A DNA stretch of 32,000 nt from Candidatus Omnitrophota bacterium (GTDB lineage: Bacteria; Omnitrophota; Gorgyraeia; Zapsychrales; JANLHA01), in contig OY759724.1 in assembly GCA_963662715.1 (NCBI GenBank), forward strand, positions 2,340,001-2,372,000. Reading direction: 5' to 3'. The notes beneath the pieces were generated by a model. It was not told where the DNA came from, searched no databases, and saw nothing but the letters and a program-made list of their open reading frames with translations. Position 1 is the first letter of the stretch; each line of letters starts with the position of its first letter. Position numbers and translations under genes: made by a program. Shown piece by piece: positions 11,164 through 31,305 of the stretch.

Positions 11164-11166
11164 TGC

Positions 11167-12856: not shown

Positions 12857-12916
12857 TATCCTGGGATGTGTGTCATTAATTTTCATGAATATACCTGAAC
12901 AAGAAAGGAATGAATT

Positions 12917-13666: not shown

Positions 13667-13670
13667 TCCT

Positions 13671-15114: not shown

Positions 15115-16135
15115 TGAACTTAAAGAGACAATCAAGAAAAATATGATCGCCGTCGGCCGGCTGCTTTGGGAGAAAGAATTGGCGACGGGCCTGAACGGGA
15201 ATATGAGTGTTAAGGTTGACGATCAGCATATCCTTCTGACGGGCAGTAAAACTTGCCTGGGGCTGCTGCACGATCAGGACATCCTGTTGATGAATTTGGA
15301 CGGACAGGTGATTGATGAGGGCATGATTTCCACGGAAGCGCTGCTGCATACGGATATTTATAAGAATGTCCCTTCCGTGAAATCCGTTCTGCATACGCAC
15401 ACGACGTTTGCAAACGCATATTTCTCGGAGCTGGATGTCCTGTCTCCGAGAAATTTTGAATCCAAACTGTATCTGGGAGAAGTCAGGTCTATTCCTCAGG
15501 ATACGCCGTCAGTGACGGATACCGCTCCGGTTCTCTCGGCCCTTAAAGAGAATAACGTCCTTGTCTTGAAAAATCATGGCATTGTTGCCGCCGGTGAAGA
15601 CCTTTTCGATTGTTTTCTTCTTGTCCAATGCCTTGAGGAGGCAGTGAAGGTGGAGTGTTTCAGCCGGTTGTTTAAGCCAAAGGCCCCTTTGAACAACACC
15701 GGTCTTTCTGCCGGATCAAAAAAAACGGAAGAACCCGGGGCGGCTGCTCCGGGGAAAAAATATAAATTGTTTTCTCAGGAGCAAATCGACCAGATCGTTC
15801 AGGTTGTCAACGCTGACAAACAGCTGAAAGATATGGGGGAAAAGACTCAGATGACCATGGAACTGGCCGTTAAATTGAACGAAACCGACCGGGTGTACAG
15901 TTTTCAGTTTGAAAACGGCCGGATTGTTCGGGTCGGCCATAATACGGACGCGGAATTTTTAATTTCGGCTTCGGCCAAAGTCTGGCTCGCCGTATTCAAC
16001 CGCCAAATAGATCCTTTTGTGGCAACAACGCAGAAAAAGATGCACCTGAAGGGCGATTATGCCCGGATTTCGAAATGGTATGCTCCCTGTAGCCGGATTT
16101 TCGAATTATGGCAGCAAGTTCCGGTTGAAGGATGA
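15107..16135 (+). CDS. class II aldolase/adducin-domain protein fused to a C-terminal SCP2-like domain
   Basis: The N-terminal ~190 aa carry class II aldolase motifs (GLNGNMSVK, LLTGSKT, STEALLHTDIY, SVLHTHTTFA zinc histidines, LKNHGIVAAGEDL). A Gly/Ala/Pro/Lys linker follows. The C-terminal ~120 aa look like an SCP2 sterol-carrier fold (AEFLISASAKVWLAVFNRQIDPFVATTQKKMHLKGD). Confidence 0.7.
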   Translation: MNNELKETIKKNMIAVGRLLWEKELATGLNGNMSVKVDDQHILLTGSKTCLGLLHDQDILLMNLDGQVIDEGMISTEALLHTDIYKNVPSVKSVLHTHTTFANAYFSELDVLSPRNFESKLYLGEVRSIPQDTPSVTDTAPVLSALKENNVLVLKNHGIVAAGEDLFDCFLLVQCLEEAVKVECFSRLFKPKAPLNNTGLSAGSKKTEEPGAAAPGKKYKLFSQEQIDQIVQVVNADKQLKDMGEKTQMTMELAVKLNETDRVYSFQFENGRIVRVGHNTDAEFLISASAKVWLAVFNRQIDPFVATTQKKMHLKGDYARISKWYAPCSRIFELWQQVPVEG

Positions 16136-16145
16136 GATTTGAGCT

Positions 16146-17633
16146 ATGGACAGATATGATTTATTCATTAACGGGACGTTAAGGCCGGCACAGGAAGACC
16201 GGTATTTTGAGGCCATGAACCCTTCCGCCGGAGAAGCGTTCGCACAGGTGGCAGATGCCTCCTGCGGGGACATGGCTGAAGCGATTGACGCCGCACGGCA
16301 GTGTTTTTTATCCATGGCCTGGGCCGGACTGACGATCAGGGAAAGAGGTCAGTTTTTATCGCGTGTCGCACAGCTCATCCGGGATAATGCCAAACTTTTG
16401 GCCGAATTGGAAAGTTCCGATACCGGCAAAACGATTAAGCAGACGACATTTATTGACGTCCCCACGTGTGCGGACACTTTTGAATATTTTGCCGGAGTGA
16501 GTGATCAGTTGAAAGGAACGATCAACCCTGTCCCGGCCCCTGTACGCAGCCTGACCGATAGAGAGCCTGTGGGTGTCGTCGCCGCCATTATCCCCTGGAA
16601 CTATCCTCTTATCATGTTCGCCTGGAAGGTGGCGCCTGCTTTGATCGCCGGGAATTCCGTTATTTTTAAGCCGTCCCGCCAGGCAAGCGTTTCCATTTCA
16701 AAACTCGCCCAAATTATCCGGCAGGCCGGCCTGCCGGACGGGGCGCTTAATGTTGTCACAAGCAGCCGGCATGAGGTGGTTCAGAAACTCATTGAAAGCC
16801 CGGAAGTTCATATGATCAGTTTTACCGGGGGGACGGAAACGGGCCGCGATGTCATGCGCCGCGCCGCACAGACGACAAAAAAATTAAATTTGGAACTCGG
16901 GGGGAAATCTCCCAACATCGTGTTCGCGGATTGTGATATCGACGCCGCTGTCGGGGGGACGCTGTCAGCCATTTTTATGAATCAGGGACAGATGTGTACC
17001 GCCGGATCCCGGTTGCTTTTGGAGGATGATATTTATGACGATTTTTTAAAAAGACTGGTTCAGAAGGTGCAGCAGTTTAAGATCGGCCATAGTATCAATT
17101 ACGATACGGATTTTGGCCCTCTTATTAGCGCGCAGCACCGGGAGCAGGTTTTGTCCTACGTCCGAAAAGGGGTAAACGAAGGCGCTACGCTTCTTTGCGG
17201 CGGCAAGATACCGGAAGATCTCCCTTCGGATATAGCGAAAGGATATTATTTGGAGCCTACGATCTTCACGGACGTTACTCCTGAGATGACGATTGCCCGG
17301 GAAGAAATATTCGGCCCGGTTCTGTCGGTCATGAGATTCTCCTCTCCGGAAGAAGCTCTGGAGCTCGCGAATGATACTCCTTACGGTCTGGCTGCCTGTG
17401 TTTGGACCAGGAGCATGGATAAAGCTCAGCAGGTTTCCAAACAGCTGCAGTGCGGAATCGTGTGGGTTAACACCTACGGCGGTTTTTACAACGAGGCTTC
17501 CTTCGGCGGTTACAAACAGAGCGGGTTTGGCCGTTCCCTGGGAACCGAGGGCCTTTTGGAATATACGCAGTCAAAACATATCTGTATTGACGCGACACCT
17601 GGAGGGCGTTCTCTTGTCTCGAGCTGGTTTTGA
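16146..17633 (+). CDS. NAD(P)+-dependent aldehyde dehydrogenase (non-acylating ALDH superfamily)
   Basis: Present are the ELGGKSP glutamate motif, the FMNQGQMCTAGSR catalytic cysteine motif, PWNYPL and EEIFGPV. The product is 495 aa. Confidence 0.92.
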   Translation: MDRYDLFINGTLRPAQEDRYFEAMNPSAGEAFAQVADASCGDMAEAIDAARQCFLSMAWAGLTIRERGQFLSRVAQLIRDNAKLLAELESSDTGKTIKQTTFIDVPTCADTFEYFAGVSDQLKGTINPVPAPVRSLTDREPVGVVAAIIPWNYPLIMFAWKVAPALIAGNSVIFKPSRQASVSISKLAQIIRQAGLPDGALNVVTSSRHEVVQKLIESPEVHMISFTGGTETGRDVMRRAAQTTKKLNLELGGKSPNIVFADCDIDAAVGGTLSAIFMNQGQMCTAGSRLLLEDDIYDDFLKRLVQKVQQFKIGHSINYDTDFGPLISAQHREQVLSYVRKGVNEGATLLCGGKIPEDLPSDIAKGYYLEPTIFTDVTPEMTIAREEIFGPVLSVMRFSSPEEALELANDTPYGLAACVWTRSMDKAQQVSKQLQCGIVWVNTYGGFYNEASFGGYKQSGFGRSLGTEGLLEYTQSKHICIDATPGGRSLVSSWF

Positions 17634-17770
17634 CTGCCGAGCCTCCGCAGCCTTTATGTCTTTATTGTAACGCGCGTTACCGGGTATCTTAAGAAATGCA
17701 AGACAGGGATGTGCAGGGTCTTTTTTAGTAAAGAAACCATAGAACATAATTTTTTTGAGAAAGGGATGGA

Positions 17771-19243
17771 ATGAAAGTTTTATTTGTTACGCCTCCGATG
17801 GGTTCCTGGGCTACCCACGGAGACCATAAAGCTCCTAATCAGTATTATGCCCAGGTTGCGGCCTATCTGCGGGACAAAGCCGTGGCCGATGTCCAGGTCC
17901 TGGATGCTAAGGCGTTGGATCTTTCTTATGATCAGATGATGGCTGAAATTGCGAAGAGCCAGCCCCGTTTATGTGTCTTTGGGGACCTGCTGCATTCTAC
18001 CGGAGGATTGTCTGTCATCTGGCATTTCCTGGAAACAGCCAGAAGAATTAAGGACATCCTGCCTGAGACCAAAATCCTTATGGGCGGTCTTTGGTTTTCC
18101 GCCTATGCCACCGAAACGCTGGAACAGAACCCCTGGGTGGACTTCATTGCCATGGGAGAGGGTGAGCTCACAATCACAGACCTGATCCTGGCATTGGAAA
18201 ACCAGAAGACGGACCTGTCGGATATCCCCGGCCTGGTCTCGCGGACGGCGGACGGAAAGATCGAGATGGGGCCGCACCGGGACTTGATCCCCAGCCTGGA
18301 TGATTTGCCGATGCCGGCGTATGACCTTTTCCCGATGGAAAAATATGTCGGCCACACATACTGGAAACCGTTTGCCGAACTCCTGACTTCCCGCGGCTGC
18401 CCCGGGGCATGCACCTTTTGTTATCAGTGGAGTCTCTACGATAAGCGCAACAGTCAAAAGGATTATATTTCCTGGCGGGGAAAATCCCATAGCCGGATTT
18501 TAGACGAGTTGGATTATCTTGAAAAAGAATACGGCGTCAAGGTTGTCGTCATACAGGATGATGCTTTTAACGTAGACAAGGATAATGTGCGGCGTTTTTG
18601 TGAGTCGAAAATTGAGCGGGGCAACAGAATTCAATGGGTTTGTTTAGGCCGCGCCGATGACTGGTTGGCCCACAAGGATATTTTACCCCTGATGAACAAA
18701 GCGGGTTTGTTTATGGGGCTGGTGGGCGTTGAAGTTGAGAGTGACGAGCAGCTGGCCAAACAGGGCAAGGGCGTAACGCTGCAGCAGATCAAGGATACTG
18801 TGCAGGCGTTGCGGGCGGCGAACATCGCCAGCGTCGGGACGGTGTTAATCGGGTTAGAGGATGATGATGAAGCGACCATCAAGGAAAGATTCCGGGTTGC
18901 CGATGATATTGATCCCGATATCATGGCTTTGGATTACGTGACGCCTGTGCCGGGTTCTTTATTGTGGAATAATGCGATTAAAAAAGGCTGGCTGACCCCC
19001 CGGGATATTCAGCTGCGGGAATGGGATTTTCATCACCCGGTTATCCCAACTCAATATCTTTCTGTTGCTGATGTCGGCCGGCTGGGGGCCTGGTGTATGC
19101 GCGAGTTTTATTCAAAGCCGGAGCGCATTCACCGGATTATGGACAGTGATTATGACATGCTTGTTAAATTGTGTGTGAAAGATTTTATGAGCAATATCGC
19201 CAAATTTGAAAAAGCTTCCGTTGGTGAAGGCACATATGTTTAA
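17771..19243 (+). CDS. B12-binding-domain radical SAM enzyme (class B rSAM)
   Basis: The N-terminal ~140 aa look like a cobalamin-binding Rossmann-like region. The CxxxCxxC cluster motif (SRGCPGACTFCY) is at nt 18398-18421. The overall 490-aa architecture is typical of class B rSAM proteins. Confidence 0.85.
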   Translation: MKVLFVTPPMGSWATHGDHKAPNQYYAQVAAYLRDKAVADVQVLDAKALDLSYDQMMAEIAKSQPRLCVFGDLLHSTGGLSVIWHFLETARRIKDILPETKILMGGLWFSAYATETLEQNPWVDFIAMGEGELTITDLILALENQKTDLSDIPGLVSRTADGKIEMGPHRDLIPSLDDLPMPAYDLFPMEKYVGHTYWKPFAELLTSRGCPGACTFCYQWSLYDKRNSQKDYISWRGKSHSRILDELDYLEKEYGVKVVVIQDDAFNVDKDNVRRFCESKIERGNRIQWVCLGRADDWLAHKDILPLMNKAGLFMGLVGVEVESDEQLAKQGKGVTLQQIKDTVQALRAANIASVGTVLIGLEDDDEATIKERFRVADDIDPDIMALDYVTPVPGSLLWNNAIKKGWLTPRDIQLREWDFHHPVIPTQYLSVADVGRLGAWCMREFYSKPERIHRIMDSDYDMLVKLCVKDFMSNIAKFEKASVGEGTYV

Positions 19244-19296
19244 TTTTAAAATGGCCCGGCGTTAGAATCCGTGGTCTGAGGACAGGACGGTGATCT

Positions 19297-19596
19297 ATGG
19301 TTGATGAACAGCTCCAGATGGAATGGGAGAAAAGTGCGTTAACAAAATATAAAAATATGATTCAAAGGATCCCCTTGTTTCACCGGGAAATTGCGGATCA
19401 GGTCGTTACGAAAAAAGCGACGCAGAATGCTCAGAAAAGAGGCTCGGAGATTGTTGAGGAATGTGATATCCTCAGGGCTTTTTTTTCGGAAGTTCCCATG
19501 ACATTTTACGGGCTTATGATCCGGCTCTTTGAAGAGGTTGGCTTTGATTATAATAAATATGATCCCAGCCATAATGGAAAGACGGAGACAACCTAG
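19297..19596 (+). CDS. small protein resembling the PCP_red domain (C-terminal domain of protochlorophyllide reductase subunit B)
   Basis: The segment MEWEKSALTKYKNMIQRIPLFHREIADQVVTKKATQNAQKRGSEIVE fits the W..A...L..IP.F.R.......E..A...G pattern of PF08369 as I recall it. This assignment needs an HMM check. Confidence 0.45.
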   Translation: MVDEQLQMEWEKSALTKYKNMIQRIPLFHREIADQVVTKKATQNAQKRGSEIVEECDILRAFFSEVPMTFYGLMIRLFEEVGFDYNKYDPSHNGKTETT

Positions 19597-19706
19597 CCTA
19601 GGGAGAAGTTCCCTGCTTCTGGAAGTTTTGTCCCCGGTGACGTAGCGTGAACCGTTTCCCCGCGTAGCGGCAGCATGTTATTCAGCAAAAAAATGAGGAA
19701 AGAGCC

Positions 19707-20177
19707 GTGGCCCAAAAATCAGAATTGCGAGTGAGTCATCATTTTGTTTTTATCGAAGTCCCCATCGGCCTTGTGACTTCGGAATCTTTATTGTGGGGAG
19801 AGGCCTCGTGGTGGCCGAAGCCTTGTCCTTGGCATACGCAGAAGCTGACAGAAGGGGACATTGCTATCGGGACGCAATATCATCATTCTCTAGGCGGAGG
19901 CCTGGCTCCGCGCTGGGTTTCGGAAATAACCCAGTATGAGCCGAGACGGGAAATCGAACGCACATTTAAAGGGGATTTCTTTGTCGGGTATGAAGTCATT
20001 CAGGTGGGGGAGAGAGCGAACGGGACACGGATTGATTATGAAATGCATTATCAGGTCAAAGGTTTGTATAAAAAGATATTGTGGGAAATCTATTACAGAA
20101 AGAAATATGAAGCTAAGCTTGAAATGATCCTGGCAACATTAAAAGAGTATGTCGTGAAGCAGTATTATAAGGATTAA
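19707..20177 (+). CDS. SRPBCC (START/Bet v1-like) superfamily protein
   Basis: The ORF has a GTG start with a GAGGAA RBS upstream. The size (156 aa) and the alternating beta-strand pattern with a long C-terminal helix are typical of SRPBCC proteins. The family call is tentative. Confidence 0.5.
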   Translation: MAQKSELRVSHHFVFIEVPIGLVTSESLLWGEASWWPKPCPWHTQKLTEGDIAIGTQYHHSLGGGLAPRWVSEITQYEPRREIERTFKGDFFVGYEVIQVGERANGTRIDYEMHYQVKGLYKKILWEIYYRKKYEAKLEMILATLKEYVVKQYYKD

Positions 20178-20200
20178 CCTTGTCTTCGGGAGAAAGTCAG

Positions 20201-21232
20201 ATGAAAATTGCTGTTATTGGAGCAGGGGCGATTGGTTCGGTTGTTGCGGGCTTCTTGACCAAAGCCGGGGCAGACGTTCTTTTGGTGGGGCGCCCGGAAC
20301 AGGTCTCGGCCATTCAAGAAAACGGCTTATGTATCAGAAAGCCTGACGGGGATGAAGCCGTCGGTGTCCGCGTCGCGGACAAACTGGACCGGACGTATGA
20401 TTTGGTTATTTTTACCGTGAAAAGCCAGGATATGGAGCAGGCTTATCAAGATAACGCGGATTTTCTGGAAGATAGCCTGGTGCTAACAACACAGAACGGG
20501 ATCCAGGGAGATAATCTTCTCAGCACTCATTTTGCTCCGGAAAGGATGTACAGCAGTATCGTCATGTTCGGGGCGACATACACTGTCCCGGGGGAGGTTG
20601 TCCTCAATTTCCCGGGGGATTGGATTATCGGAAAACCTTACACTGTCAATGATGCTAAGATCGAAGAAATAGCGTATGTTCTAAAGAGAGCTTTTCCTGT
20701 TGAGATATCGACAAATATTATGGGGATGAAGTGGCTGAAGCTTTTCGTGAATTTTAATAATTGTATCCCGGCGTGCATTGGTCAGCCCATGCAGGAAGCT
20801 TTTTCGGATATCGACTTGTGTAAGCTGAGTGTCCTGTTGTTGCGGGAGGGTCTTGATATCATCAACGCCGCCGGAATAGAATTGGTTTCGTTGCCGAATT
20901 TTCCTGTTGAGAGAATCCTGGGGCTTGCCCGTATGCCTGTCAACGAAGCGGCGGGTATCCTTCAGAAAACATTGACCGGTTTGAGCAAAGAGCCTGTTTA
21001 TGGCTCGATATTACAGAGTATTAAACGGGGCAAACCCAGTGAAATTGATTTTATTAACGGGGAAATCGACCAGGTGGCAGCCAGTATCCGAAGGAAGGCG
21101 CCTTTAAACAGGAAAATAGTCCGGTTCGTTCATCAGGTGGAGGGGACGGGGCAATTTTTTACCCCGGAAGAAATCAAGTCGGAATTCCCATTAACGGAAG
21201 GTCTTCTTGAAGAAACAGGGCAAGGCCGGTGA
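20201..21232 (+). CDS. ketopantoate reductase (ApbA/PanE) family NAD(P)H-dependent 2-oxoacid/ketone reductase
   Basis: MKIAVIGAGAIGSVVAGFL is the Rossmann motif. GMKWLKLFVNFNN and SILQSIKRGKPSEIDFINGEI correspond to the PanE signatures K..K...N and S.LQD...G..TEID.ING. The ATG at 20201 has a GGGAGAA RBS, whereas the ORF track starts at a TTG at 20180. Confidence 0.8.
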   Translation: MKIAVIGAGAIGSVVAGFLTKAGADVLLVGRPEQVSAIQENGLCIRKPDGDEAVGVRVADKLDRTYDLVIFTVKSQDMEQAYQDNADFLEDSLVLTTQNGIQGDNLLSTHFAPERMYSSIVMFGATYTVPGEVVLNFPGDWIIGKPYTVNDAKIEEIAYVLKRAFPVEISTNIMGMKWLKLFVNFNNCIPACIGQPMQEAFSDIDLCKLSVLLLREGLDIINAAGIELVSLPNFPVERILGLARMPVNEAAGILQKTLTGLSKEPVYGSILQSIKRGKPSEIDFINGEIDQVAASIRRKAPLNRKIVRFVHQVEGTGQFFTPEEIKSEFPLTEGLLEETGQGR

Positions 21233-21312
21233 ATTTGTCCCTGACACGGTGATGCCGTTTGTCGGGGCACGGCGTGTCGTGATTTTAAACAGTCTATAAG
21301 AGAGAGGGAAAA

Positions 21313-22572
21313 ATGTCTAGACGAGTCGTTATAACAGGGGTGGGTCTCGTTGCCCCCAACGGGGTCGGAAATGACGAGTGTTTTCACGCCATGGTGAACG
21401 GAATTTCCGGAGTGAAACGGGTCACCGAATTTGATGTGTCTCAATTTAACACGAAGATCGCTGCGCAAGTCAAAAGGTTTGACCCCATATCTTTGGGGCT
21501 GACCCGGGAGGAGGCCATTCGCATGGACCTTTACGTGCAGTTTGCCGTGATCGCCGCGCGCATGGCGGTCGAGGACGCCAAACTGGATTTGAGCCGGGTT
21601 GATAAAGAACGCATGGGTGTTTCGCTGGCCAATGCCATCTGCGGAACGAAATATATGGAGGAAGAATTTGCCCTTGTGACGGACAGCGGTAAAAATCCTA
21701 TTGATCCGAGTCTGGTCCGGAAAGACCTTTACGATGCCTCGATGTTCAACACGCCTTCCAGTGAGATCACGGCCAAATACGGGCTGCAGGGCATCTGCAA
21801 TACCATATCGACAGGATGTACGGCAGGGACGGATTCCGTCGGATTTTCTTATGAGGCGATTCAGTCGGGGGAAGCCGATATCATGATTACCGGGGCTAGT
21901 GAAGCCCCGATTACACCCATAACCTTTGGGGCTTTTGATTGTATTAATGTCCTCTCCACGAGGAATGATGAGCCCGAAAAAGCTTCCCGGCCGTTTGATA
22001 AAAGCAGGAACGGTTTTATCATATCGGAAGGGGCGGGTCTGCTTGTCGTTGAAGAACTTGAGCACGCGTTAAAACGCGGCGCAAGAATTTATTGTGAAAT
22101 TATCGGTTACGGCACGACGAACAATGCGTATCACATGACGGATCTTCCCCCGGAAGGGGACGCCATGGCGGACAGCATTGTTCTGGCGATCAAAAGCGCC
22201 GGGATTAACCCGGAACAAATTGATTATATCAATGCGCATGGCTCTTCCACCCGGCAAAATGACGTTTTTGAAACGAACGCTTATAAGATGGCTTTAGGCG
22301 ACGCCGTTTACAATATCCCGATCAGTTCCCTGAAGTCCATGATCGGGCATCCGCTGGCGGGAGCCAACGGTATCGAACTTGCCGTCGGCGCTCTTATCTT
22401 CGAGCGCAATATCCTGCCTCCGACGATCAACCAGGAAGAAGCTGACCCGGAGTGTGATTTGGATTATATCCCGAATGTGGCCCGGGAGAAAAAGATCGAT
22501 ATCATGTTAAAAACAAGCAGCGGTTTTTCCGGCATTCACTCAGCCATGGTTTTGAAGCGGTATGCCGGGTGA
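21313..22572 (+). CDS. beta-ketoacyl synthase, catalytically competent subunit (KS-alpha / FabF-like)
   Basis: The active-site motif ISTGCTAGTDSVG places Cys169 at nt 21817-21819. Both catalytic histidines are present (INAHGSST and KSMIGHPLAGANG). The TGCT.G.D context resembles type II PKS KS-alpha. Confidence 0.9.
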   Translation: MSRRVVITGVGLVAPNGVGNDECFHAMVNGISGVKRVTEFDVSQFNTKIAAQVKRFDPISLGLTREEAIRMDLYVQFAVIAARMAVEDAKLDLSRVDKERMGVSLANAICGTKYMEEEFALVTDSGKNPIDPSLVRKDLYDASMFNTPSSEITAKYGLQGICNTISTGCTAGTDSVGFSYEAIQSGEADIMITGASEAPITPITFGAFDCINVLSTRNDEPEKASRPFDKSRNGFIISEGAGLLVVEELEHALKRGARIYCEIIGYGTTNNAYHMTDLPPEGDAMADSIVLAIKSAGINPEQIDYINAHGSSTRQNDVFETNAYKMALGDAVYNIPISSLKSMIGHPLAGANGIELAVGALIFERNILPPTINQEEADPECDLDYIPNVAREKKIDIMLKTSSGFSGIHSAMVLKRYAG

Positions 22573-22610
22573 TCTGCCGTAGAGGATATACATAAACAAT
22601 TGGAGAGACA

Positions 22611-23843
22611 ATGGACAGAATAGCAATTACAGGTGTGGGGGTCGTTTCCCCGAGCGGTATCGACAAACGGAAATTTTGGTCTAATGTCAAAAAAGGCCGT
22701 TCAGCCGTCAAGGTGATCGATAGATTTGATGCCTCACGGTATCCTTCTCATCTCGCCGGGCAAGTTCATGAGCTGGATGCCTACAGCAAGGTGTCTTCCC
22801 GGCTGCTGAAAAAAATCGATTTGTTCGCCCATATGGCGCTGGTCGCTTCCGAACTGGCCATAGAAGACGCTGGCATCGATATGCAGAGCGAAAATTTAAA
22901 GCGGGCGGGAATTTTTATGGGCAATGCGATCGGAGGATGGCTTTATGCGGAAACGGAGTTGCGGGATCTTTACCTGGAAGGACGGGAGGGGGTAAGCCCT
23001 TTTATGGCCTCCGCGTGGTTCCCTGCGGCTCCGCAAGGACAGATATCGATTCATTACGGTATAAAAGGCTATAGCAAAACCATCGTTGCCGACCGGGCGA
23101 GTTCTTTGATGGCCATCGGGTACGGGGCAAAAAATCTTAAGAAAGGCCACAATGATTTTATCCTCGCCGGAGGGATGGAAGCCCCGGTGACGCCTTATGC
23201 TTTGTTGTGCTGCAACACCTCAGGTATGCTTACGAAGAACAACAAAGCCGCCGACACAGCCTATAAGCCTTTTGATAAAAACCGGGACGGGTTTGCCATC
23301 GCTGAGGGGGCAGGGTGCCTTATCCTGGAACCTTTGGAAAGAGTCCGGGGCCGGCAGACATCTGTCCTGGGCTTTGTGGCGGGCTTTGGCACCACCACGG
23401 ACGGGGTAAGCCGCATTGATCCTGCCGATGACGGCCTGCAGTTATCCCGGGCTATCCGCCTGGCCCTGGAGGATGCGCAATGTGCCCCGGAAGACATTGA
23501 TTATATCTGTGCCGACGGGGACGGAACGGTTCTGGGGGACCGGACGGAAACCATGGCCATTAAACAGGTCTTTAACAGCCATGCCAAGAAAATCCCGGTC
23601 ACCGCTCCCAAATCAGTTTTCGGTAATATGCTTGGAGCTTCCGGGGCTGTTGATGTTATAACAACTCTTTTAGCCATGGAGTCCGGCATTGTCCCTCCGA
23701 CGATTAATTATCAAACTCCGGATCCGGAATGTGATCTGGATTATTGTCCCAACAAATGCCAGGCCAAAGAGATCAACAAGGCTTTGGTGCTCAATCGCGG
23801 CCGCGGCGGGATTAACGTGGCGTTGGTCTTGGCCAAGAAATAA
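22611..23843 (+). CDS. beta-ketoacyl synthase-like partner subunit lacking the catalytic triad (KS-beta / chain-length-factor-like)
   Basis: The product aligns without gaps to the upstream KS around the active site. The Cys position is Arg162 (IVADRASSLMAIG, codon at nt 23094-23096). The first His is replaced by Asp (ICADGDGT) and the second by Asn (KSVFGNMLGASGA). Confidence 0.85.
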   Translation: MDRIAITGVGVVSPSGIDKRKFWSNVKKGRSAVKVIDRFDASRYPSHLAGQVHELDAYSKVSSRLLKKIDLFAHMALVASELAIEDAGIDMQSENLKRAGIFMGNAIGGWLYAETELRDLYLEGREGVSPFMASAWFPAAPQGQISIHYGIKGYSKTIVADRASSLMAIGYGAKNLKKGHNDFILAGGMEAPVTPYALLCCNTSGMLTKNNKAADTAYKPFDKNRDGFAIAEGAGCLILEPLERVRGRQTSVLGFVAGFGTTTDGVSRIDPADDGLQLSRAIRLALEDAQCAPEDIDYICADGDGTVLGDRTETMAIKQVFNSHAKKIPVTAPKSVFGNMLGASGAVDVITTLLAMESGIVPPTINYQTPDPECDLDYCPNKCQAKEINKALVLNRGRGGINVALVLAKK

Positions 23844-23906
23844 TTTTATCAATATAGGGCTGGGGACGAATCTGCCTTAAAAGCCCTGAATGAAGGAGGT
23901 ATCCCT

Positions 23907-24146
23907 GTGTGTGTTGAGGCAAAAGTGAAAGAAGTATTCCAGAAGGTGCTGGATGTCAGCCCTGACGAGATTAAGCCGGATGAGAGCCTGGCGGCCTCTT
24001 TGGGGGTGGATTCCACGGAGTTGGTCGAGATATCCGTCGGGATAAAAAAAGAACTGAATGTCCCTTTGGGCGACGGAGAGCTTAAAAAAACATTCACGTT
24101 TAATGAAATCGTTGAGATTGTGAAGTCAAAGGCTCCGGCGGACTGA
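23907..24146 (+). CDS. acyl carrier protein
   Basis: The 79-aa product has the LGVDSTELVE phosphopantetheine-attachment motif (Ser36 codon at nt 24012-24014). It has a GTG start with a GGAGG RBS 7 nt upstream. Confidence 0.85.
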   Translation: MCVEAKVKEVFQKVLDVSPDEIKPDESLAASLGVDSTELVEISVGIKKELNVPLGDGELKKTFTFNEIVEIVKSKAPAD

Positions 24147-24213
24147 AGAAGTATGTGAGTCGGGATATGCGCTTTTCGGGCGCGCTGGCGTTAACGCAAA
24201 ATGGAGTGCTTTC

Positions 24214-25068
24214 ATGCCCGGCAGAAATGCCGAAGGAGAAAGGCGACGGATTGGAATTATGCAGATCATTGATCTTAGTCTTCCCATAGACGACACCTTG
24301 CAGGAGACCCATGCCGCCAAGATCGACCGCATCAGCCATGCGGACGGTGTTGAGCATTTCAACTGGGTGGTTATGAAGAACCGTCCCGGCGGACAGGAAA
24401 AGTTTGAACAGGGGGAAAGAGTTGCTGCTGCCGGGGAAATCCCTGATGGGGAAATGCTGTCTTTGGAAATAGTCCATGCCTCTGTTCATATGGGGTCGCA
24501 TGTGGACGCCCCGTTTCATTACGGCAGCTGTTGTGAAGGCCGGCCGGCCCGGACCATTGAAGATGTCCCTCTGGAATGGTGTTACGGAGACGGGGTGATC
24601 TTGGATTTCACTCATATGCATTATCCGGATGCTATCCACCGAACCGATATCGAGCAGGCTTTAAAGAAGCTGTCTTATAAGCTTAAGCCCATGGACATCG
24701 TTCTTATTTATACCGGTGGGGATGCCCTCCTGGGGACTCCGGATTATGTGAATAAGTATGTCGGCATGATGCCTGACGCTGTCGAGTTTATTCTGGACCA
24801 GGGCGTCAAAATGCTGGGCATTGACACCATTGGGCTTGACCGCCCGTGTTTTGAAATGTTTCAGGAATTTTTGACGACAAAAGACAAATCAAAACTTTGG
24901 CCGTCGCATTTCCTCGGCCGCCGGAGGGAATTTTGTCATATGGAGCGGCTTGGCAATCTGGGGGCTGTTCCCCGTTCTTTTGGCTTTAAAGTGGCGTGTT
25001 TCCCGGTGCGGGTTAAAAATGCCGGAGCCGGATGGGCCAGAGTCGTTGCGATGCTGGAGGATCGCTAG
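24214..25068 (+). CDS. cyclase-family protein (PF04199 putative cyclase / kynurenine-formamidase-like metallohydrolase fold)
   Basis: The HMGSHVDAPFH motif at nt 24487-24519 matches the family signature HxGTHxDxPxH. The start could instead be the ATG at 24259 (MQIIDLSLPI), which resembles the usual family N-terminus. Confidence 0.8.
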   Translation: MPGRNAEGERRRIGIMQIIDLSLPIDDTLQETHAAKIDRISHADGVEHFNWVVMKNRPGGQEKFEQGERVAAAGEIPDGEMLSLEIVHASVHMGSHVDAPFHYGSCCEGRPARTIEDVPLEWCYGDGVILDFTHMHYPDAIHRTDIEQALKKLSYKLKPMDIVLIYTGGDALLGTPDYVNKYVGMMPDAVEFILDQGVKMLGIDTIGLDRPCFEMFQEFLTTKDKSKLWPSHFLGRRREFCHMERLGNLGAVPRSFGFKVACFPVRVKNAGAGWARVVAMLEDR

Positions 25069-25241
25069 TGCAGGAACAAAAGATGCCTTTCGCTAAAAAA
25101 ACAAGGAAGGAAAGCGGGGCTGTGTCTCGTGTTTTTTTAGGCGGGCAGCAGTGGGGTTGAGCGTCGAAAGGGCGAGCCCCCTTTGACGGAAGGGGCTTGC
25201 CGGATAAGAAATTATAACTTATTTATAACGGGGAGGATATT

Positions 25242-25700
25242 ATGGGACATACACGGAATTCGATATTGATTAATGCGCCCTATGATCTTGTTTATGACAC
25301 TTCCAATGATATTGAAAGATGGACCGAACTGTTTGGAGACGAATATATTAAAGCAGAGGTGTTGGAGCGAAGCGGTCTTGAGATAACATTCCGTCTTACC
25401 GATGATGAAAATAAATCATGGGTTTCCAAACGATGGCTTCATAAAGAGCAGTTTTTTGCCTTTGCATCCCGCCACGAACCGATGTTCCCTTTTAAGTATA
25501 TGAAAATCATTTGGTTGTATCATGTTACGGCAGAAGGGACTCTTATGACCTGGATTCAGGATTTTGAAATGGACCCGGGGTTCACCGCGTATTCGGAAGA
25601 GCAGATAGAAGGGTTTATTAATAAGCATTCCAAGGATAACATGAAGATTTTTAAGGATGTTATTGAAAAGGAAGCTGAGCAATTGGCCTCTCAATCATAA
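25242..25700 (+). CDS. SRPBCC polyketide cyclase/dehydrase-like protein (ARO/CYC-like)
   Basis: The N-terminus HTRNSILINAPYDLVYDTSNDIERWTELF matches the typical Polyketide_cyc/cyc2 start (h.e.si.i.aP...vy....d.e.Wpe.f). The product is 152 aa, and a GGGGAGG RBS lies upstream. Confidence 0.65.
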   Translation: MGHTRNSILINAPYDLVYDTSNDIERWTELFGDEYIKAEVLERSGLEITFRLTDDENKSWVSKRWLHKEQFFAFASRHEPMFPFKYMKIIWLYHVTAEGTLMTWIQDFEMDPGFTAYSEEQIEGFINKHSKDNMKIFKDVIEKEAEQLASQS

Positions 25701-25746
25701 AGCTCAAAAAGGAAAAATTTTTCTTACATTTTTCTCTTATTTTTGG

Positions 25747-25779
25747 TACTAATATTATTATGGTATAATAATATTAGTA
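25747..25779. promoter_or_regulatory. 33-bp perfect palindrome (15-bp arms, 3-nt spacer) overlapping an extended -10 element; candidate operator and promoter of the MFS gene
   Basis: tactaatattattat-ggt-ataataatattagta is a perfect inverted repeat. The TGgTATAAT extended -10 at 25761-25769 lies at its centre, 39 nt upstream of the ATG at 25808. Confidence 0.6.
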
Positions 25780-25807
25780 TAAAGAGTCTTTCTGTGGACT
25801 TTTTTTC

Positions 25808-26962
25808 ATGTTTAATTTTGGGAGTCAGATAACTCGAGAAAAAAAAGTTAGCTATTTTTTGTTGTGTTGTGGATGTTTCACAATATCATTTAATGTTGCG
25901 GCAATTGTGGCGGCGATCCCGGCTATGAGTGTTGATCTGCGGATTCCAGGTATCCTGGTTTCGGATGTCATTCCTTATTATATGATTCCTTATGGTGTGG
26001 GCGCCCTGCTTTATGCCCCGTTGACTCGTTATTTCTCATATAAGCGCATCCTGGGTATTTCTTTGTTCTGTTATGCCCTGGCTTGTTTTTACTGCGCCAA
26101 CATACGGACCATACAGCATTTTTTGCTGGGACGTGTGATCATGGGGGTCTCCGGTGCGGGTGTTATTCCTTTGGGGTTGATGATAATTGGGCAGCTTTTT
26201 GAAAAGAACGTCCGGGGCCGTTTGGTGGGAATGTTTTTTAGCTTCAGTTTTCTGGCATCTATCTCGGGATTGATCTTGAGCGGAACCGTACACTGGAGAT
26301 GGCTTTTTTGGATTCCGTCTTTGATCGGAGTTGTCACGGCCCTGAGTATTTTATTTTTAAGTCTCGAGCCCTTTGCCCATATATGCCGGCTGAAAATTGA
26401 TTATATCAACACACTTAAGAAACCCTGTATAGGGCGGATTTTTGGTTTTATTGCTTTTATCAGTTTCTTGTTCCATGGGGTGCAGAAATGGTTTGGTGTG
26501 TATCTGGCGGAGAGCTATCACCTGAACCAGATGATGATCAGTTCTTTGTTGTTAATCCCGCCGGTGAGCGGGGCTCTGGGGCAAATGATGGGGGGGTATC
26601 TTTCAGATAAGAAAGGGCGTGCAGCCGCCTGTCTCATCGGACTGTTGATCTTGTCTTTATCAACGATGTCATTATACGGAAAGTATCCTTTGCTGATCGT
26701 CGGACTTATCTTGGGGCTTGTTAGTTTCGGGTGGACCATCGGGCATAATGGTATTTCAACTATCTTGACGGACTTTCCCGACACGCATCGTTCAGAGATC
26801 GCAAGCTTGAATTCCGCTCTCCGTTTTATCGGCGGCGGGGTGGGTTTTAAGATCAGTAAGTTTTTTATTAATAGGGGGATGAGTTTTGAAATGAACTTTT
26901 TGTTGCTGGGGGTCTGCATGCTGTTTTCCGGATTTTTTTTAAAGAAAATTATCCCGGATTGA
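25808..26962 (+). CDS. MFS transporter
   Basis: The 384-aa product is very hydrophobic with about 11-12 predicted TM segments. An MFS-like loop motif is present (GQLFEKNVRGRLVGMF, plus GGYLSDKKGR between TM segments). Confidence 0.8.
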   Translation: MFNFGSQITREKKVSYFLLCCGCFTISFNVAAIVAAIPAMSVDLRIPGILVSDVIPYYMIPYGVGALLYAPLTRYFSYKRILGISLFCYALACFYCANIRTIQHFLLGRVIMGVSGAGVIPLGLMIIGQLFEKNVRGRLVGMFFSFSFLASISGLILSGTVHWRWLFWIPSLIGVVTALSILFLSLEPFAHICRLKIDYINTLKKPCIGRIFGFIAFISFLFHGVQKWFGVYLAESYHLNQMMISSLLLIPPVSGALGQMMGGYLSDKKGRAAACLIGLLILSLSTMSLYGKYPLLIVGLILGLVSFGWTIGHNGISTILTDFPDTHRSEIASLNSALRFIGGGVGFKISKFFINRGMSFEMNFLLLGVCMLFSGFFLKKIIPD

Positions 26963-27043
26963 AACAGGATTTTTTAACGGGGTCATGCCGGAGGTCAAGC
27001 TGGGCATGGGAGGCCTCGTTCTATCTAAAGAAAGGGAGCATTA

Positions 27044-27814
27044 ATGAATTTAAAAGGGAAGAATGCTGTTATAACCGGCGCCAGTAAAGGCATCGGGAAG
27101 GCCATTGCCTTAAAACTCGCAGAACAAGGTGTCAACGTGATGATTGCGGCCAGGACGCAGGCGACTCTGGAGGAAGCTGCGGCGGAGATTGAGAAGAAAA
27201 CAGGCTCGCGGGTCATCGGTGTCCCGACGGATGTGAGTCGACTTGCCGATTTGCAAAACCTGGCTGACAAAGCCTTTCAGGAGTTCAAAACGGTCGATAT
27301 CCTCATTAATAATGCCGGAGTTTCCAGCCAGTATCCTTTTGATAAGCAGCCGCTGGAAGACATAGAGCGGCTGGCGCACACGAATTATTTGGGGTATGTC
27401 AGACTGATCCGCCTCATTATTCCTCATATGATTGAAAGAAAACAGGGCGCGATTATTAACATGGTGAGCGGATCGACATTATGTGACCCTTTGCCGAAGA
27501 ATTTTATTACATACAGTTCTTTAAAAGTCGGCTTGCGCGCTTTTTTGAAAGGGCTCTTTTGGGAGATGCGGGATCACGGGATTAAAATCACGTCTGTTTT
27601 GCCTGGTGTCGTCGATACGGAGCTGACCGGGAAGTTAAAGGACATTACCGAGCAGCAAAAAGAGCGGCTTATGTCTGCGGATTCCGTGGTGGATATGGTT
27701 ATGTTCGCGTTATCCGTGCCGCAGAACGCATGCCCGCTGGAATTGGCCGTTATTAACCAGCAAACTCCGTGGACAAAGCCTGTTATAGACTATGCCCAAC
27801 AGCAGGCGAAGTAG
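27044..27814 (+). CDS. SDR-family oxidoreductase (ketoreductase-like)
   Basis: Present are the TGASKGIGKAIA cofactor motif, NNAG, and the catalytic S...YSSLK (YxxxK) motif. The product is 256 aa. Confidence 0.88.
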   Translation: MNLKGKNAVITGASKGIGKAIALKLAEQGVNVMIAARTQATLEEAAAEIEKKTGSRVIGVPTDVSRLADLQNLADKAFQEFKTVDILINNAGVSSQYPFDKQPLEDIERLAHTNYLGYVRLIRLIIPHMIERKQGAIINMVSGSTLCDPLPKNFITYSSLKVGLRAFLKGLFWEMRDHGIKITSVLPGVVDTELTGKLKDITEQQKERLMSADSVVDMVMFALSVPQNACPLELAVINQQTPWTKPVIDYAQQQAK

Positions 27815-27901
27815 GTGACGGTTCTGTGGATGTGTTCATATCATGTGAAGAAAGGCTGTCTTGATATGAAATATTGCGTGATAAGAAGGGAGGTGACATG
27901 A

Positions 27902-28135
27902 GTGGATAAAACCGTTTTTACTTTCAAGAAGAATAAGTTCCAGGAAGTGCGGGTCGGTATCCGGGAATACAAGGGGAATGACTTGGTCGATATTCGTACT
28001 TGGACGATGACGCAGGGATCTGAGGAGATGGTTCCTACAGCCAAAGGTGTTTCCATTAACATTAATTTGCTGCCGGATCTGAAAAAAGCTCTTGAGGTCG
28101 TCGAGCAGGAACTGAAGCAGAACGCGATGCTTTAA
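27902..28135 (+). CDS. PC4/p15-like (YdbC-type) single-stranded nucleic-acid-binding domain protein
   Basis: The ORF has a GTG start 8 nt after a GGGAGG RBS. The pattern FQEVRVGIREYKGNDLVDIRTWT....PTAKGVSI matches the bacterial PC4-like domain pattern (e.rv.l.ey.G..y.diR.W......pTkKGisl) as I recall it. Confidence 0.5.
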   Translation: MDKTVFTFKKNKFQEVRVGIREYKGNDLVDIRTWTMTQGSEEMVPTAKGVSININLLPDLKKALEVVEQELKQNAML

Positions 28136-28322
28136 TAACCGTTGTGTTGGCTTCTGCGGTTTTCCCGATGTGTCAACAAACATGGGCTTAATATGCTTAT
28201 CGCGCTGAACAGTGTCAGGGCGGGGCATGAGTCATTTAAGTCGGTGTTTATGTTTTTACCTTTTGTGTTCTCCCCCCAGAAAAAATCCGTTTGTTAAAAG
28301 ATATTGATGGAAAGGTTTTGTT

Positions 28323-29237
28323 ATGAGTAGAATTATTGATGCCCACAGCCACTATATGCCTCAGGCCATTGCTTCAAAGACGACATTTTTCCGCTCGAGC
28401 TGGTCGGATCTTGACTGGCAGCTGGCAACGATGAAACAATTTGGTATCGAGAAAGCCGTTTTGCTTTATCCGACGAGCGATGCACATCTTAACATGGGGG
28501 GGTGGAAAAATGTTTGTGAAATTTACAATGAAGAGATCAGCAAGGTCGTGAGGAAATACTCCCGGCGGCTTATTGGCGCGGGAATCCTTCCTTTAGACAG
28601 TCCCGAAGACATCATGAAAGAGCTGAGCCGTTTTAAGTCTTTGAAATTGTCCATGATATCATTGCCGTCCAGTTTTGAAGGGAAATATTTGGACGACGAC
28701 ATGTTTACCCCGGTCTTCGAATATGCCCAGAAAAACCGCATGCCGATCCACGTCCATCCCCAAATTATCAACCCTATCGGGGAGGACCGGGTGAAAGATC
28801 CGTTGCTGACGCCGGTTTTAGAATACGTTTTCGATGTCTCTATGAGCATCGGCAAATTAATGATGAATGAAAAGCTTTTGGCTTTCCCGGACGTTAAACT
28901 TATTTTTGCTCACTATGGCGGGGTGCTTCCTTTTGTTAAGGAGCGTTTTGACAATACGTATCTCATGCTTCGTAAAAGAGGGTTTGTTAAAGACTTGTTC
29001 AAGCTTCCCAGCGAGTATTTTAAGAACCTGTATTTTGACATTGCCGGTTCGAAATCGCCTTCGGCTTTTTTCTGTGCTCTGGAAGTTACGGACGCCTCGC
29101 ATATTTTATTCGGGTCGGATTTCCCGGCGAACCAGGATATTCTCGGCACGCTCAACATGATCAACCGGTCCCCTTTGAGCACGAATTTCAAAGACGCGAT
29201 CTTTTTTAAGAACGCTAAAGCCTTATTAGATATATAG
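28323..29237 (+). CDS. amidohydrolase_2 (PF04909, ACMSD/aromatic-acid-decarboxylase-like) family metal-dependent hydrolase/decarboxylase
   Basis: The metal-binding start IIDAHSHYMP is present, along with later HVHP, FAHYGG and LFGSDFP motifs typical of the amidohydrolase_2 TIM-barrel family. Confidence 0.75.
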   Translation: MSRIIDAHSHYMPQAIASKTTFFRSSWSDLDWQLATMKQFGIEKAVLLYPTSDAHLNMGGWKNVCEIYNEEISKVVRKYSRRLIGAGILPLDSPEDIMKELSRFKSLKLSMISLPSSFEGKYLDDDMFTPVFEYAQKNRMPIHVHPQIINPIGEDRVKDPLLTPVLEYVFDVSMSIGKLMMNEKLLAFPDVKLIFAHYGGVLPFVKERFDNTYLMLRKRGFVKDLFKLPSEYFKNLYFDIAGSKSPSAFFCALEVTDASHILFGSDFPANQDILGTLNMINRSPLSTNFKDAIFFKNAKALLDI

Positions 29238-29404: not shown

Positions 29405-30997
<1,593 letters not shown>

Positions 30998-31293: not shown

Positions 31294-31305
31294 TATTAAA
31301 TATGG

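Follow-up and report, generated by a model that had tools for sequence, protein, structure and literature searches.

Type II polyketide synthases (PKSs) found outside actinomycetes include an 'ancestral' architecture that combines a ketosynthase (KS), a chain-length factor (CLF), an acyl carrier protein (ACP) and two cyclases, denoted KS-CLF-ACP-TcmN-OxyN; its products are anthraquinone-type or related polyphenols (clostrubin, wexrubicin, dendrubins, AQ-256), and some of the producers are anaerobes (PMC7693217). The CLF of the clostrubin system is ClrB (PMC7693217). Tailoring of a type II polyketide by a radical S-adenosylmethionine (SAM) enzyme has a precedent in the HemN-like CoeI (PMC9714029), and no literature precedent was found for such tailoring by a radical SAM enzyme with a B12 domain. 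As regards Omnitrophota, a catalogue published in 2023 records KS-CLF pairs in 14 phyla, of which Candidatus Omnitrophica is one, with no further analysis (PMC10132072), and a study of the Cariaco Basin reports antiSMASH 'ladderane' clusters in Omnitrophota metagenome-assembled genomes (MAGs) (PMC9902471). Polyketides are unmentioned in the two genome surveys of the phylum that were searched, and no published description of the Omnitrophota cluster presented here was found. This cluster lies between about positions 10645 and 29237 of a stretch of 32,000 nucleotides from a Candidatus Omnitrophota bacterium (contig OY759724.1, positions 2,340,001 to 2,372,000, forward strand), which is called the window and numbered from its first letter. 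Omnitrophota are widespread, uncultured and mostly ultra-small anaerobes for which predatory or host-dependent lifestyles are suspected. Homologous loci in other genomes are designated by the letter L and a number.

Judged by its protein families, the cluster is very probably an aromatic type II PKS cluster of the anaerobe-associated, non-actinomycete 'ancestral' type, with the composition KS-CLF-ACP-OxyN-TcmN. A first-pass annotation of the segment 17771–29237 had proposed a type II PKS-like biosynthetic cluster in a non-actinobacterial genome of a lineage resembling the Planctomycetes–Verrucomicrobia–Chlamydiae (PVC) group. Both parts hold, the former through the KS and CLF clades, the aromatase/cyclase (ARO/CYC) and the PF04199 cyclase, the latter through the organism, a member of Omnitrophota. 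The cluster is nevertheless less exotic than that annotation implied, as it falls in the already recognized clostrubin-like 'ancestral' group: the order KS-CLF-ACP-PF04199-SRPBCC and a KS placed outside the actinobacterial clade (72%) are the features by which the type is defined. The core genes are the following.

21313–22572, plus strand: KS-alpha, the active ketosynthase (Pfam KS; Cys, His and His in STGCTAG, NAHGSS and IGHPLA).
22611–23843, plus strand: KS-beta or CLF (second Pfam KS protein; triad replaced by Arg162, Asp302 and Asn339).
23907–24146, plus strand: discrete ACP (Pfam PP-binding; motif GVDSTE).
24214–25068, plus strand: polyketide cyclase of the PF04199 (OxyN/DpsY) type (Pfam Cyclase, 102 bits; HMGSHVDAPFH, fitting HxGxHxDxPxH).
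25242–25700, plus strand: mono-domain ARO/CYC of the TcmN/WhiE type (SRPBCC, Polyketide_cyc; 152 amino acids).

The KS pair provides the first line of evidence. The intact Cys-His-His triad of one member, the triad-less state of its partner and the discrete ACP with a PP-binding domain and DS motif are all as first described. In the partner, the Arg, Asp and Asn at the triad positions are invariant among 120 orthologues, and hallmarks of CLFs are present, namely an Asp before the lost Cys and the replacement of the first His by Asp. Arg occupies the lost-Cys position instead of the Gln that is canonical in actinobacterial CLFs, and the same Arg occurs in the CLFs of C. beijerinckii, Azospirillum, Archangium, Ktedonobacter and Priestia. 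The idea that this residue is an Omnitrophota novelty was rejected, since it is common in non-actinobacterial CLFs.

Among solved structures, the window KS scores 387 bits against the actinorhodin KS-alpha (1tqy_A) and 385 bits against Photorhabdus AntD (6smo_B), versus at most 366 bits against FabFs. In tblastn searches of plasmids, it is 48.8% identical to a type II PKS-like KS of Azospirillum and 46–48% identical to more than 100 Streptomyces KS-alpha genes, which adjoin genes annotated as ketosynthase chain-length factor, TcmI cyclase and aromatase/cyclase; its identity to FabFs is 30–41%. In neighbour-joining trees, the Omnitrophota KS groups with the Azospirillum KS and Streptomyces KS-alpha, and the partner with the Azospirillum KS-beta and Streptomyces CLF, each with 100% bootstrap support and with FabFs outside, so that the pair is not nested within FabF. 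A tree with more taxa again gives the KS-alpha-type clade 100% support. It unites Omnitrophota with a deltaproteobacterial MAG and the JAKAMU group (87% in the KS subtree, 58% in the partner subtree), and its KS subtree places this assemblage as sister to PKSs of clostrubin producers and Firmicutes plasmids (84%), a relation that the partner subtree leaves unresolved (support 20–50%). The whole non-actinobacterial KS group (72%) is sister to Streptomyces KS-alpha. Representatives at 50% identity are dominated by giant modular PKSs with summed KS domains, and about 10 stand-alone relatives were usable.

A housekeeping role in type II fatty-acid synthesis, already doubted in the first-pass annotation, was rejected. 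KS, partner and ACP all miss the equivalog cut-offs for FabF or AcpP (partner, 384.1 bits with a cut-off of 493.75 for TIGR03150; ACP, 38.8 with a cut-off of 70.45 for TIGR00517), and fatty-acid synthesis genes are not among the neighbours. The absence of FabZ, FabA, an enoyl reductase, FabD and FabH was likewise correctly noted, since Pfam and NCBIfam annotation of the window finds no FabZ, FabA, FabI, FabD or FabH; 360 kb of sequence from related Omnitrophota loci likewise yielded neither FabH nor FabD. The supplement of PMC10066038 has KEGG orthology entries for FabD, FabZ, FabG and FabF at Omnitrophota nodes, in a table format that is not interpretable with certainty.

The cyclases provide the second line of evidence. 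The ARO/CYC protein matches WhiE (3tl1, 3tvr, 2kf2) and TcmN (2rez) structures over its full length in phmmer searches of the PDB, with E values of 1e-25 to 1e-27. Its pocket residues (W/F/Y...WVSxR...R...YM..W...W.Q), those of the TcmN structure, are conserved. The PF04199 protein, whose HxGxHxDxPxH motif had been recognized at the outset, has its nearest annotated relatives in polyketide clusters of Priestia, Staphylococcus, Apilactobacillus, Crinalium and Streptomyces, the Streptomyces one being a type II PKS cluster like others among them. In the Firmicutes clusters, the PF04199 homologue stands immediately 5′ of an SRPBCC cyclase, as in the window.

The cluster is not sporadic but widely conserved and expressed in Omnitrophota. 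A scan of species-representative genomes places it at 22 loci in Omnitrophota; one of these is in Candidatus Velamenicoccus archaeovorus LiM, a complete genome, whose KS partner is 65% identical. By tblastn comparison, gene order agrees among all loci of sufficient length, so that the neighbourhood is conserved in relatives. More than 120 protein clusters are related to KS-beta at 74–86% identity, and all named homologues of this partner belong to Candidatus Omnitrophota or Omnitrophica. Across the loci, identities to the window are 70–82% for KS, 72–80% for the PF04199 cyclase and 64–79% for KS-beta, and thus exceed those of neighbouring genes that resemble primary metabolism (51–69% for the MtnA-like protein). 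The nearest cluster outside the phylum is found in MAGs labelled Deltaproteobacteria (63% identity for KS, 58% for KS-beta and 57% for the radical SAM enzyme). Its locus L050 shares the radical SAM, PanE, KS, KS-beta, ACP, cyclase, ARO/CYC, transporter, amidohydrolase and nucleoside phosphorylase-like genes, two IF-2B genes and the aldolase-SCP2 gene described below, in a different order with the nucleoside block downstream. Directly 5′ of the radical SAM gene, L050 (1–3236) encodes an RND-type transporter of the MMPL/Patched/sterol-sensing kind and a DUF1329 lipoprotein, envelope genes that hint at a hydrophobic product trafficked in the cell envelope. In the JAKAMU01 lineage the order is SRPBCC, small protein, aldehyde:ferredoxin oxidoreductase (AFOR), PanE, KS, KS-beta, ACP, cyclase, ARO/CYC and amidohydrolase.

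Expression is documented for Velamenicoccus, whose orthologues were tied by exact-sequence matching to accessions QAT17632–QAT17647. Transcripts of the cluster amount to 13–38 transcripts per million (PMC12583861 Table S2). In the metaproteome of 10kS cells, relative intensity-based absolute quantification (riBAQ) values, in ppm, are 104 for KS, 110 for KS-beta, 52 for the PF04199 cyclase, 451 for ARO/CYC, 698 for the short-chain dehydrogenase/reductase (SDR), which is the most abundant cluster protein, 199 for the amidohydrolase, 122 for a second radical SAM enzyme and 34 for PanE; ACP, transporter and small protein were undetected there (PMC12583861 Table S2). The one Omnitrophota culture that is well studied therefore produces proteins of the cluster. 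The Velamenicoccus locus L019 holds additional genes (15602–20415) for a CBM_11 protein, the second B12-domain radical SAM enzyme, which is 45% identical to the first and present in the metaproteome, as well as for a HypF-C-terminal-like protein, with HypC next in line. It is thus established to which families the proteins belong, that the cluster is conserved and that a relative expresses it.

The segment 17771–29237 holds 13 open reading frames (ORFs), all on the plus strand with spacers of 2–187 nucleotides, and Pfam and NCBIfam recovered every domain named for it beforehand (radical SAM, PanE, two KS, ACP, PF04199, Polyketide_cyc, MFS, SDR, Amidohydro_2), so that its description as 13 co-directional genes with short gaps stands. 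Besides the core genes it contains the following features.

17771–19243, plus strand: class B radical SAM enzyme (PF02310 at residues 28–138, PF04055 at residues 206–368, motif CPGACTFC).
19297–19596, plus strand: 99-amino-acid protein with a sub-threshold DUF2621 match only, conserved beside the radical SAM gene.
19707–20177, plus strand: divergent SRPBCC-like protein (PF10604, E = 0.0076, under the gathering score).
20180–21232, plus strand: NADPH ketoreductase of the PanE/ApbA family (Pfam ApbA and ApbA_C).
25114–25130, plus strand: terminator-like hairpin from a pattern scan, in the spacer between the PF04199 cyclase and ARO/CYC genes (25069–25241).
25808–26962, plus strand: transporter of the major facilitator superfamily (MFS; Pfam MFS_1), its position kept in Omnitrophota and L050.
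27044–27814, plus strand: SDR oxidoreductase (Pfam adh_short; FabG-like, PDB matches generic).
27902–28135, plus strand: PC4-like protein of 77 amino acids (Pfam PC4).
28323–29237, plus strand: Amidohydrolase_2 enzyme (Pfam Amidohydro_2), of the aromatic-acid decarboxylase family.

The PanE-family assignment is supported by both Pfam domains and by the TIGR00745 subfamily (160, over a cut-off of 141). The gene stands 5′ of KS in Omnitrophota, in L050 and in L052/L053, and to judge from this distribution the reductase is a core component of this PKS subfamily. Between PanE and KS an extra gene, lacking in the window, occurs in L058 (16131–16556), L019 (7900–8574) and L050 (8029–8619); that of L058 encodes an NTF2-like SnoaL_3/DUF4440 protein, a fold frequent among polyketide cyclases. 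The SDR had been called a ketoreductase, of which the family stands, whereas a specific likeness to the actinorhodin ketoreductase does not, the PDB matches being generic. The amidohydrolase matches the 5-carboxyvanillate decarboxylase LigW and ACMSD in the PDB (E about 1e-16), in accordance with its first assignment to the aromatic-acid decarboxylases, and is also present in L050, L052 and C. beijerinckii L054. The MFS protein is probably an exporter. Of the second SRPBCC protein claimed earlier, what stands is the weak PF10604 match; it remains below the gathering score, has no PDB match, and its gene is missing from L007–L009 and other loci, where the intergenic space could not accommodate it; an orthologue in L053 is annotated as PF10604. 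It is an accessory and not a core component. The 99-amino-acid protein has orthologues in Omnitrophota loci and L053. PC4 is a single-stranded DNA-binding fold, and the place of the PC4-like protein in the pathway is doubtful; it is 72–84% identical in close relatives and absent from L019 (Velamenicoccus), L020 and the deltaproteobacterial L050.

As for the extent of the cluster, the segment originally delimited is sound, but its 5′ start is not: the conserved unit begins some 7 kb further upstream and spans about 10645 to 29237. Similarly, the enzyme said to head the cluster is indeed a class B radical SAM enzyme, and it is not encoded first, as a PadR gene at 10645 precedes it. The genes at 10645–17633, conserved with the cluster, comprise this regulator, an AMP-forming ligase and a block that would process 5′-deoxynucleosides.

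10645–11163, plus strand: PadR-family regulator (Pfam PF03551), the first gene of the unit common to deep Omnitrophota lineages.
11167–11194, plus strand: sigma-70-like promoter match TTGACA-16-TAAAAT (consensus scan, 11/12 positions, the best in the region; a pattern match only).
11318–12856, plus strand: AMP-forming acyl-CoA/acyl-ACP ligase of the fatty-acid type (Pfam AMP-binding).
12917–13666, plus strand: nucleoside phosphorylase/nucleosidase (PNP_UDP_1, Pfam PF01048), PNP-like below.
13671–14639, plus strand: MtnA-like (5-deoxy/methylthio)ribose-1-phosphate isomerase (Pfam IF-2B).
14629–15114, plus strand: small second IF-2B-like protein of 161 amino acids (partial Pfam IF-2B match).
15107–16135, plus strand: class II aldolase (FucA-like) with a C-terminal SCP2 lipid-binding domain (Pfam Aldolase_II and SCP2).
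16146–17633, plus strand: NAD(P)-dependent aldehyde dehydrogenase (ALDH; Pfam Aldedh, 580 bits).

The 5′ boundary was set by comparison with Velamenicoccus and the deltaproteobacterial MAG. PadR lies directly 5′ of the AMP-ligase gene in L057, L058 and the Velamenicoccus locus L059, and the genes 5′ of PadR differ in Velamenicoccus (AccA just upstream, LysM/YkuD); since conservation with Velamenicoccus starts at PadR and other genes lie upstream, the boundary is put at about 10645. Delimiting the cluster by synteny within the phylum was rejected, because close relatives share unrelated flanks too.

Every Omnitrophota locus that extends sufficiently far in the 5′ direction has the upstream block in synteny, with the AMP-ligase gene 5′ of the PNP-like gene in L001, L008, L009, L012, L015, L021 and L057–L059. 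The ligase scores 463 bits for long-chain-fatty-acid-CoA ligase (cut-off 476) and 271 for acetate-CoA ligase among NCBIfam models, and is a candidate activator of a starter unit or acid. The PNP-like protein, with a 52% identical orthologue in the rearranged L050, gives weak matches to the UP, DeoD, MTAN and HpnG models, all below cut-off. The MtnA-like isomerase exceeds the cut-off of TIGR00524 (201.5 versus 185.85) and falls short of the MtnA equivalog (218 versus 279); the 161-amino-acid ORF, which overlaps the ends of the isomerase and aldolase genes, is conserved in Omnitrophota and L050. Neither the PNP-like protein nor the aldolase reaches an equivalog cut-off, and the nucleoside, isomerase and aldolase domains are adjacent. 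The family of the aldolase is small, with 573 proteins at E ≤ 1e-10, of which the best 120 measure about 325–362 amino acids at 58–100% identity, every named one being from Omnitrophota. Its SCP2 match is of 30 bits (cut-off 21.3), and the fusion is also found in L050 and Velamenicoccus. ALDH is replaced by AFORs in L050 (two) and L053. Since the block is kept through rearrangement and through this non-orthologous swap, it would work with the PKS and the radical SAM enzyme. According to PMC8102628 and PMC6079011, 5′-deoxyadenosine is both a by-product and an inhibitor of radical SAM enzymes, and its known salvage proceeds by isomerization followed by aldol cleavage. Most simply, the block may then be read by analogy as a route of the dihydroxyacetone phosphate (DHAP) shunt type for disposal of 5′-deoxyadenosine or methylthioadenosine (MTA).

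The radical SAM enzyme combines a B12-binding and a Radical_SAM domain with CxxxCxxC in the form CPGACTFC, the composition expected of class B (cobalamin-domain) enzymes, to which it can be assigned on sequence features as the first-pass annotation had done. Its best NCBIfam matches are BchE, the anaerobic cyclase of Mg-protoporphyrin monomethyl ester (TIGR02026, 203.7 bits with a cut-off of 481.35), and HpnJ (153), so that it belongs to no defined family and resembles BchE at superfamily level only. The number of homologues is 914 at E ≤ 1e-30, the named ones among the best 120 being all from Omnitrophota.

All of the chemistry is inferred from these assignments, including chain length, and so are the product and what it does. 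A KS-alpha/KS-beta heterodimer would use malonyl units, supplied through a FabD encoded elsewhere, to elongate a poly-beta-ketone held by the dedicated ACP. The chain would be unreduced at C9, because the aromatase is mono-domain. First-ring folding and aromatization would fall to the TcmN/WhiE-type ARO/CYC, the closure of further rings to the PF04199 cyclase and the removal of a carboxylate to the Amidohydrolase_2 enzyme. Tailoring of the scaffold, without O2, would be shared by three enzymes (the PanE-type reductase, the SDR and the radical SAM enzyme of class B), the radical SAM step being possibly a C-methylation or a BchE-like anaerobic oxidation, and the MFS transporter would export the product. 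The PNP-like enzyme, the MtnA-like isomerase, the aldolase and ALDH would dispose, in the manner of the DHAP shunt, of the 5′-deoxyadenosine (or MTA) released by radical SAM chemistry, and the AMP-ligase would activate either the acid so formed or a starter unit other than acetate.

Several points weigh against this scheme. The KS comes near the FabF cut-off of TIGR03150, while staying under it (466.4 versus 493.75 bits), and clears the looser subfamily model NF005589 (450.8 versus 387). The trees are neighbour-joining trees with bootstrap and limited sampling. Neither a phosphopantetheinyl transferase (PPTase) nor a malonyl transferase is encoded in the cluster. Close relatives also share unrelated upstream genes (glycogen enzymes, an epimerase and a CBS protein), so that synteny within the phylum is by itself no proof of functional coupling. 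A conservation of 64–86% for a catalytically dead subunit, along with constitutive protein expression, is unusual for a dispensable antibiotic cluster. Finally, disposal of 5′-deoxyadenosine leaves the SCP2 domain, the fatty-acid-type ligase and the ALDH-to-AFOR swap unaccounted for.

These last features are those that another, rather unlikely, use of the block would explain. The radical SAM enzyme would add a 5′-deoxyadenosyl radical to a hydrophobic intermediate, so that ribose carbons of SAM enter the polyketide or its starter unit; the PNP-like enzyme would strip adenine, the isomerase and aldolase-SCP2 would trim the sugar and free DHAP, and the leftover C2 aldehyde would be oxidized by ALDH (or AFOR) and activated by the AMP-ligase. 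HpnH in hopanoid synthesis and MqnE in futalosine synthesis are precedents for the logic. The block is kept with the PKS in two phyla despite rearrangement, with AFOR taking over the function of ALDH; the lipid-binding domain is fused to an aldolase of a small family and the same fusion recurs in L050; the ligase is of the fatty-acid and not the acetate type; and the PNP-like protein has its weak HpnG-like match. The best PDB match of the radical SAM enzyme is AprD4, which shares this fold and is not known to transfer methyl groups by means of B12. However, the known adenosylating radical SAM enzymes HpnH and MqnE are not known to have a B12 domain, by-product salvage covers four of the six block genes without new chemistry, and the SCP2 match is weak and recognized by Pfam in about half of the orthologues.

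A second alternative, in which a FabF-derived pair of KS and dead KS makes a specialized membrane component from lipid or fatty acid, ladderane-like or with another acyl chain, is distinctly improbable. It would fit the high conservation and constitutive expression of the cluster, the FabF-model scores near cut-off, the fatty-acid-type ligase and SCP2 domain, and the MMPL/RND transporter and DUF1329 lipoprotein flanking the deltaproteobacterial homologue. The 9s5h heterodimer, which we take to be the anammox FabF pair, nevertheless scores 294 (chain B) and 194 bits (chain C) against the window KS, below the 387 of the actinorhodin KS-alpha. The reading also fits the antiSMASH-type 'ladderane' calls in Omnitrophota MAGs (PMC9902471) and has a precedent in the anammox FabF pair, a KS/CLF-like heterodimer of lipid synthesis (bioRxiv 10.64898/2026.05.19.726425). 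Against it stand the KS-alpha and CLF clades, outside FabF at 100% bootstrap, the presence among the core genes of a TcmN-type ARO/CYC with a conserved pocket and of an OxyN-type cyclase, the absence from the window of a dehydratase or enoyl reductase, and the score of the radical SAM enzyme with the ladderane model TIGR04072 (rSAM_ladder_B12), 74 bits with a cut-off of 360; the ladderane parallel drawn in the first-pass annotation is accordingly weak. A reduced or conjugated chain made by a polyene or aryl-polyene (APE)-type system, like ishigamide or the APE pigments, has next to no likelihood, as was already argued for aryl polyenes: such systems share a KS/CLF-like pair and a discrete ACP and are common in Gram-negative bacteria, but the ishigamide KS (6kxd) scores 224 bits versus 387 for the actinorhodin KS-alpha, dehydratase genes are absent and aromatic-type cyclases are present.

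Around the aromatic PKS genes, further observations concern the flanks and spacers. The spacer between the cyclase and ARO/CYC genes is an insertion hot spot, with 1.5–4.5 kb of extra DNA in L001, L002, L005, L009, L018 and L022; in L001 (12501–13864) it holds genes for a glutaredoxin and a ParE toxin. An rRNA operon lies 3′ of the cluster (window 29405–32000), with 16S rRNA at 29405–30995, then tRNA-Ile, tRNA-Ala and the start of 23S rRNA. An rRNA operon follows the cluster directly in at least eight other loci (L001, L005, L007, L008, L009, L013, L015 and L022), whose 16S rRNAs are 86–92% identical to that of the window; in L015 the 16S alignment is broken near position 560 by about 280 nucleotides of extra DNA, which may be an insertion or intron. 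Upstream, the window (39–6235) carries glycogen/alpha-glucan genes, namely a fragment of a GlgB-like branching enzyme, a GH57 protein with DUF3536 and a GH77 4-alpha-glucanotransferase, the last being syntenic in L058. The strong AT skew at 8–9 kb is due to the gene at 7838–9073; its product of 411 amino acids, for which Pfam gives no match, has a membrane anchor at the N-terminus and a long coiled coil rich in Q, E and K.

The product of the cluster probably matters to the Omnitrophota way of life: strong conservation across distant lineages and detection of the proteins in an enrichment point to an aromatic metabolite with an important role; candidates are redox transport, a structural part in the membrane or at the surface, and attack on prey. 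Conservation and expression across a candidate phylum, a B12-domain radical SAM enzyme and a retained link to putative 5′-deoxynucleoside-processing enzymes are the features that stand out. The first would add a deep-branching lineage to the question of type II PKS origins outside actinomycetes; the second would represent oxygen-independent tailoring of aromatic polyketides, in place of oxygenases; the third, an evolutionarily retained tie, could reflect detoxification of a by-product or new C–C bond chemistry. It is a speculative thought, and probably not correct, that Omnitrophota and related anaerobes share a central aromatic polyketide, and not a dispensable antibiotic, built with SAM ribose by radical adenosylation of a hydrophobic intermediate and then by phosphorolysis, isomerization, SCP2-guided aldolase cleavage, oxidation and activation with CoA. 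If true, this would be a new O2-free grafting of a C2 unit with recovery of DHAP, by a logic akin to the futalosine and hopanoid side-chain pathways and assembled from DHAP-shunt enzymes.

Compared with known systems, the upstream block resembles the DHAP shunt or 5-deoxyribose salvage (MtnP or MtnN/K, MtnA or DrdI, Ald2 or DrdA), a known pathway that disposes of radical SAM by-products, in the succession of a nucleoside-cleaving enzyme, an IF-2B isomerase, a class II aldolase and aldehyde handling. It differs from it by its location inside a PKS/radical SAM operon, by the aldolase-SCP2 fusion and by the addition of a second small IF-2B-like protein, an ALDH (or AFOR) and a fatty-acid-type AMP-ligase. 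With the anammox ladderane cluster, the window shares a PVC host, an active KS and a triad-less KS, a dedicated ACP and radical SAM genes. The anammox FabF2/FabFmut pair is FabF-like with 27–32% similarity, and the Cys of the partner is changed to Val or Thr; unlike that cluster, the window has aromatic cyclases, no reductive genes of the fatty-acid synthesis type and a radical SAM enzyme that fails the ladderane model.

The closest characterized relative found appears, from gene order and identity, to be the PKS of the clostrubin producers C. beijerinckii and C. puniceum (L054), which we take to be the clr cluster from the organism names and from ClrB being named as the clostrubin CLF. The organisms are likewise anaerobic, the order is KS, KS-beta, x, PF04199 and mono-domain SRPBCC ARO/CYC, an Amidohydro_2 gene is present, and the CLF has Arg at the lost-Cys position (ADRASG). 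Identities to the window are 46% for KS, 43% for KS-beta, 47% for the cyclase, 39% for ARO/CYC and 31% for the amidohydrolase. L054 lacks the B12-domain radical SAM enzyme, the PanE-type reductase and the PNP/IF-2B/aldolase-SCP2/ALDH block, and has ketosynthase III, PPTases, DUF362 and DUF169 proteins and hydrolases. The dendrubin (den), AQ-256 (ant) and pyxidicycline (pcy) clusters share the KS-CLF-ACP-TcmN-OxyN set and hosts outside Actinomycetota, but their TcmN is duplicated or di-domain, whereas the window has a single mono-domain TcmN and a divergent, dispensable SRPBCC protein; den is described without a radical SAM enzyme or nucleoside-processing block (PMC7693217).

The actinorhodin, tetracenomycin and WhiE systems have homologous KS-alpha, CLF, ACP, TcmN/WhiE-type ARO/CYC and PF04199 cyclase. 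In contrast to actinobacterial CLFs, that of the window has Arg for Gln, and Asn for Arg at the second-His position; KS-alpha identity is 46–48%, and oxygenases are absent from the cluster, consistent with an anaerobic host. The plasmid-borne KS closest to that of the window is encoded in L035, an apparently uncharacterized type II PKS-like cluster on plasmid p3 of Azospirillum brasilense Sp7 (132665–140910), with genes for a di-domain SRPBCC protein, an SDR, KS, an Arg-type KS-beta, ACP, four ABM monooxygenases, a second SDR, a PPTase and RND efflux. Where this aerobic relative has its four ABM monooxygenase genes, the window cluster has the radical SAM enzyme, which suggests anaerobic oxidative or methylating chemistry in their place.

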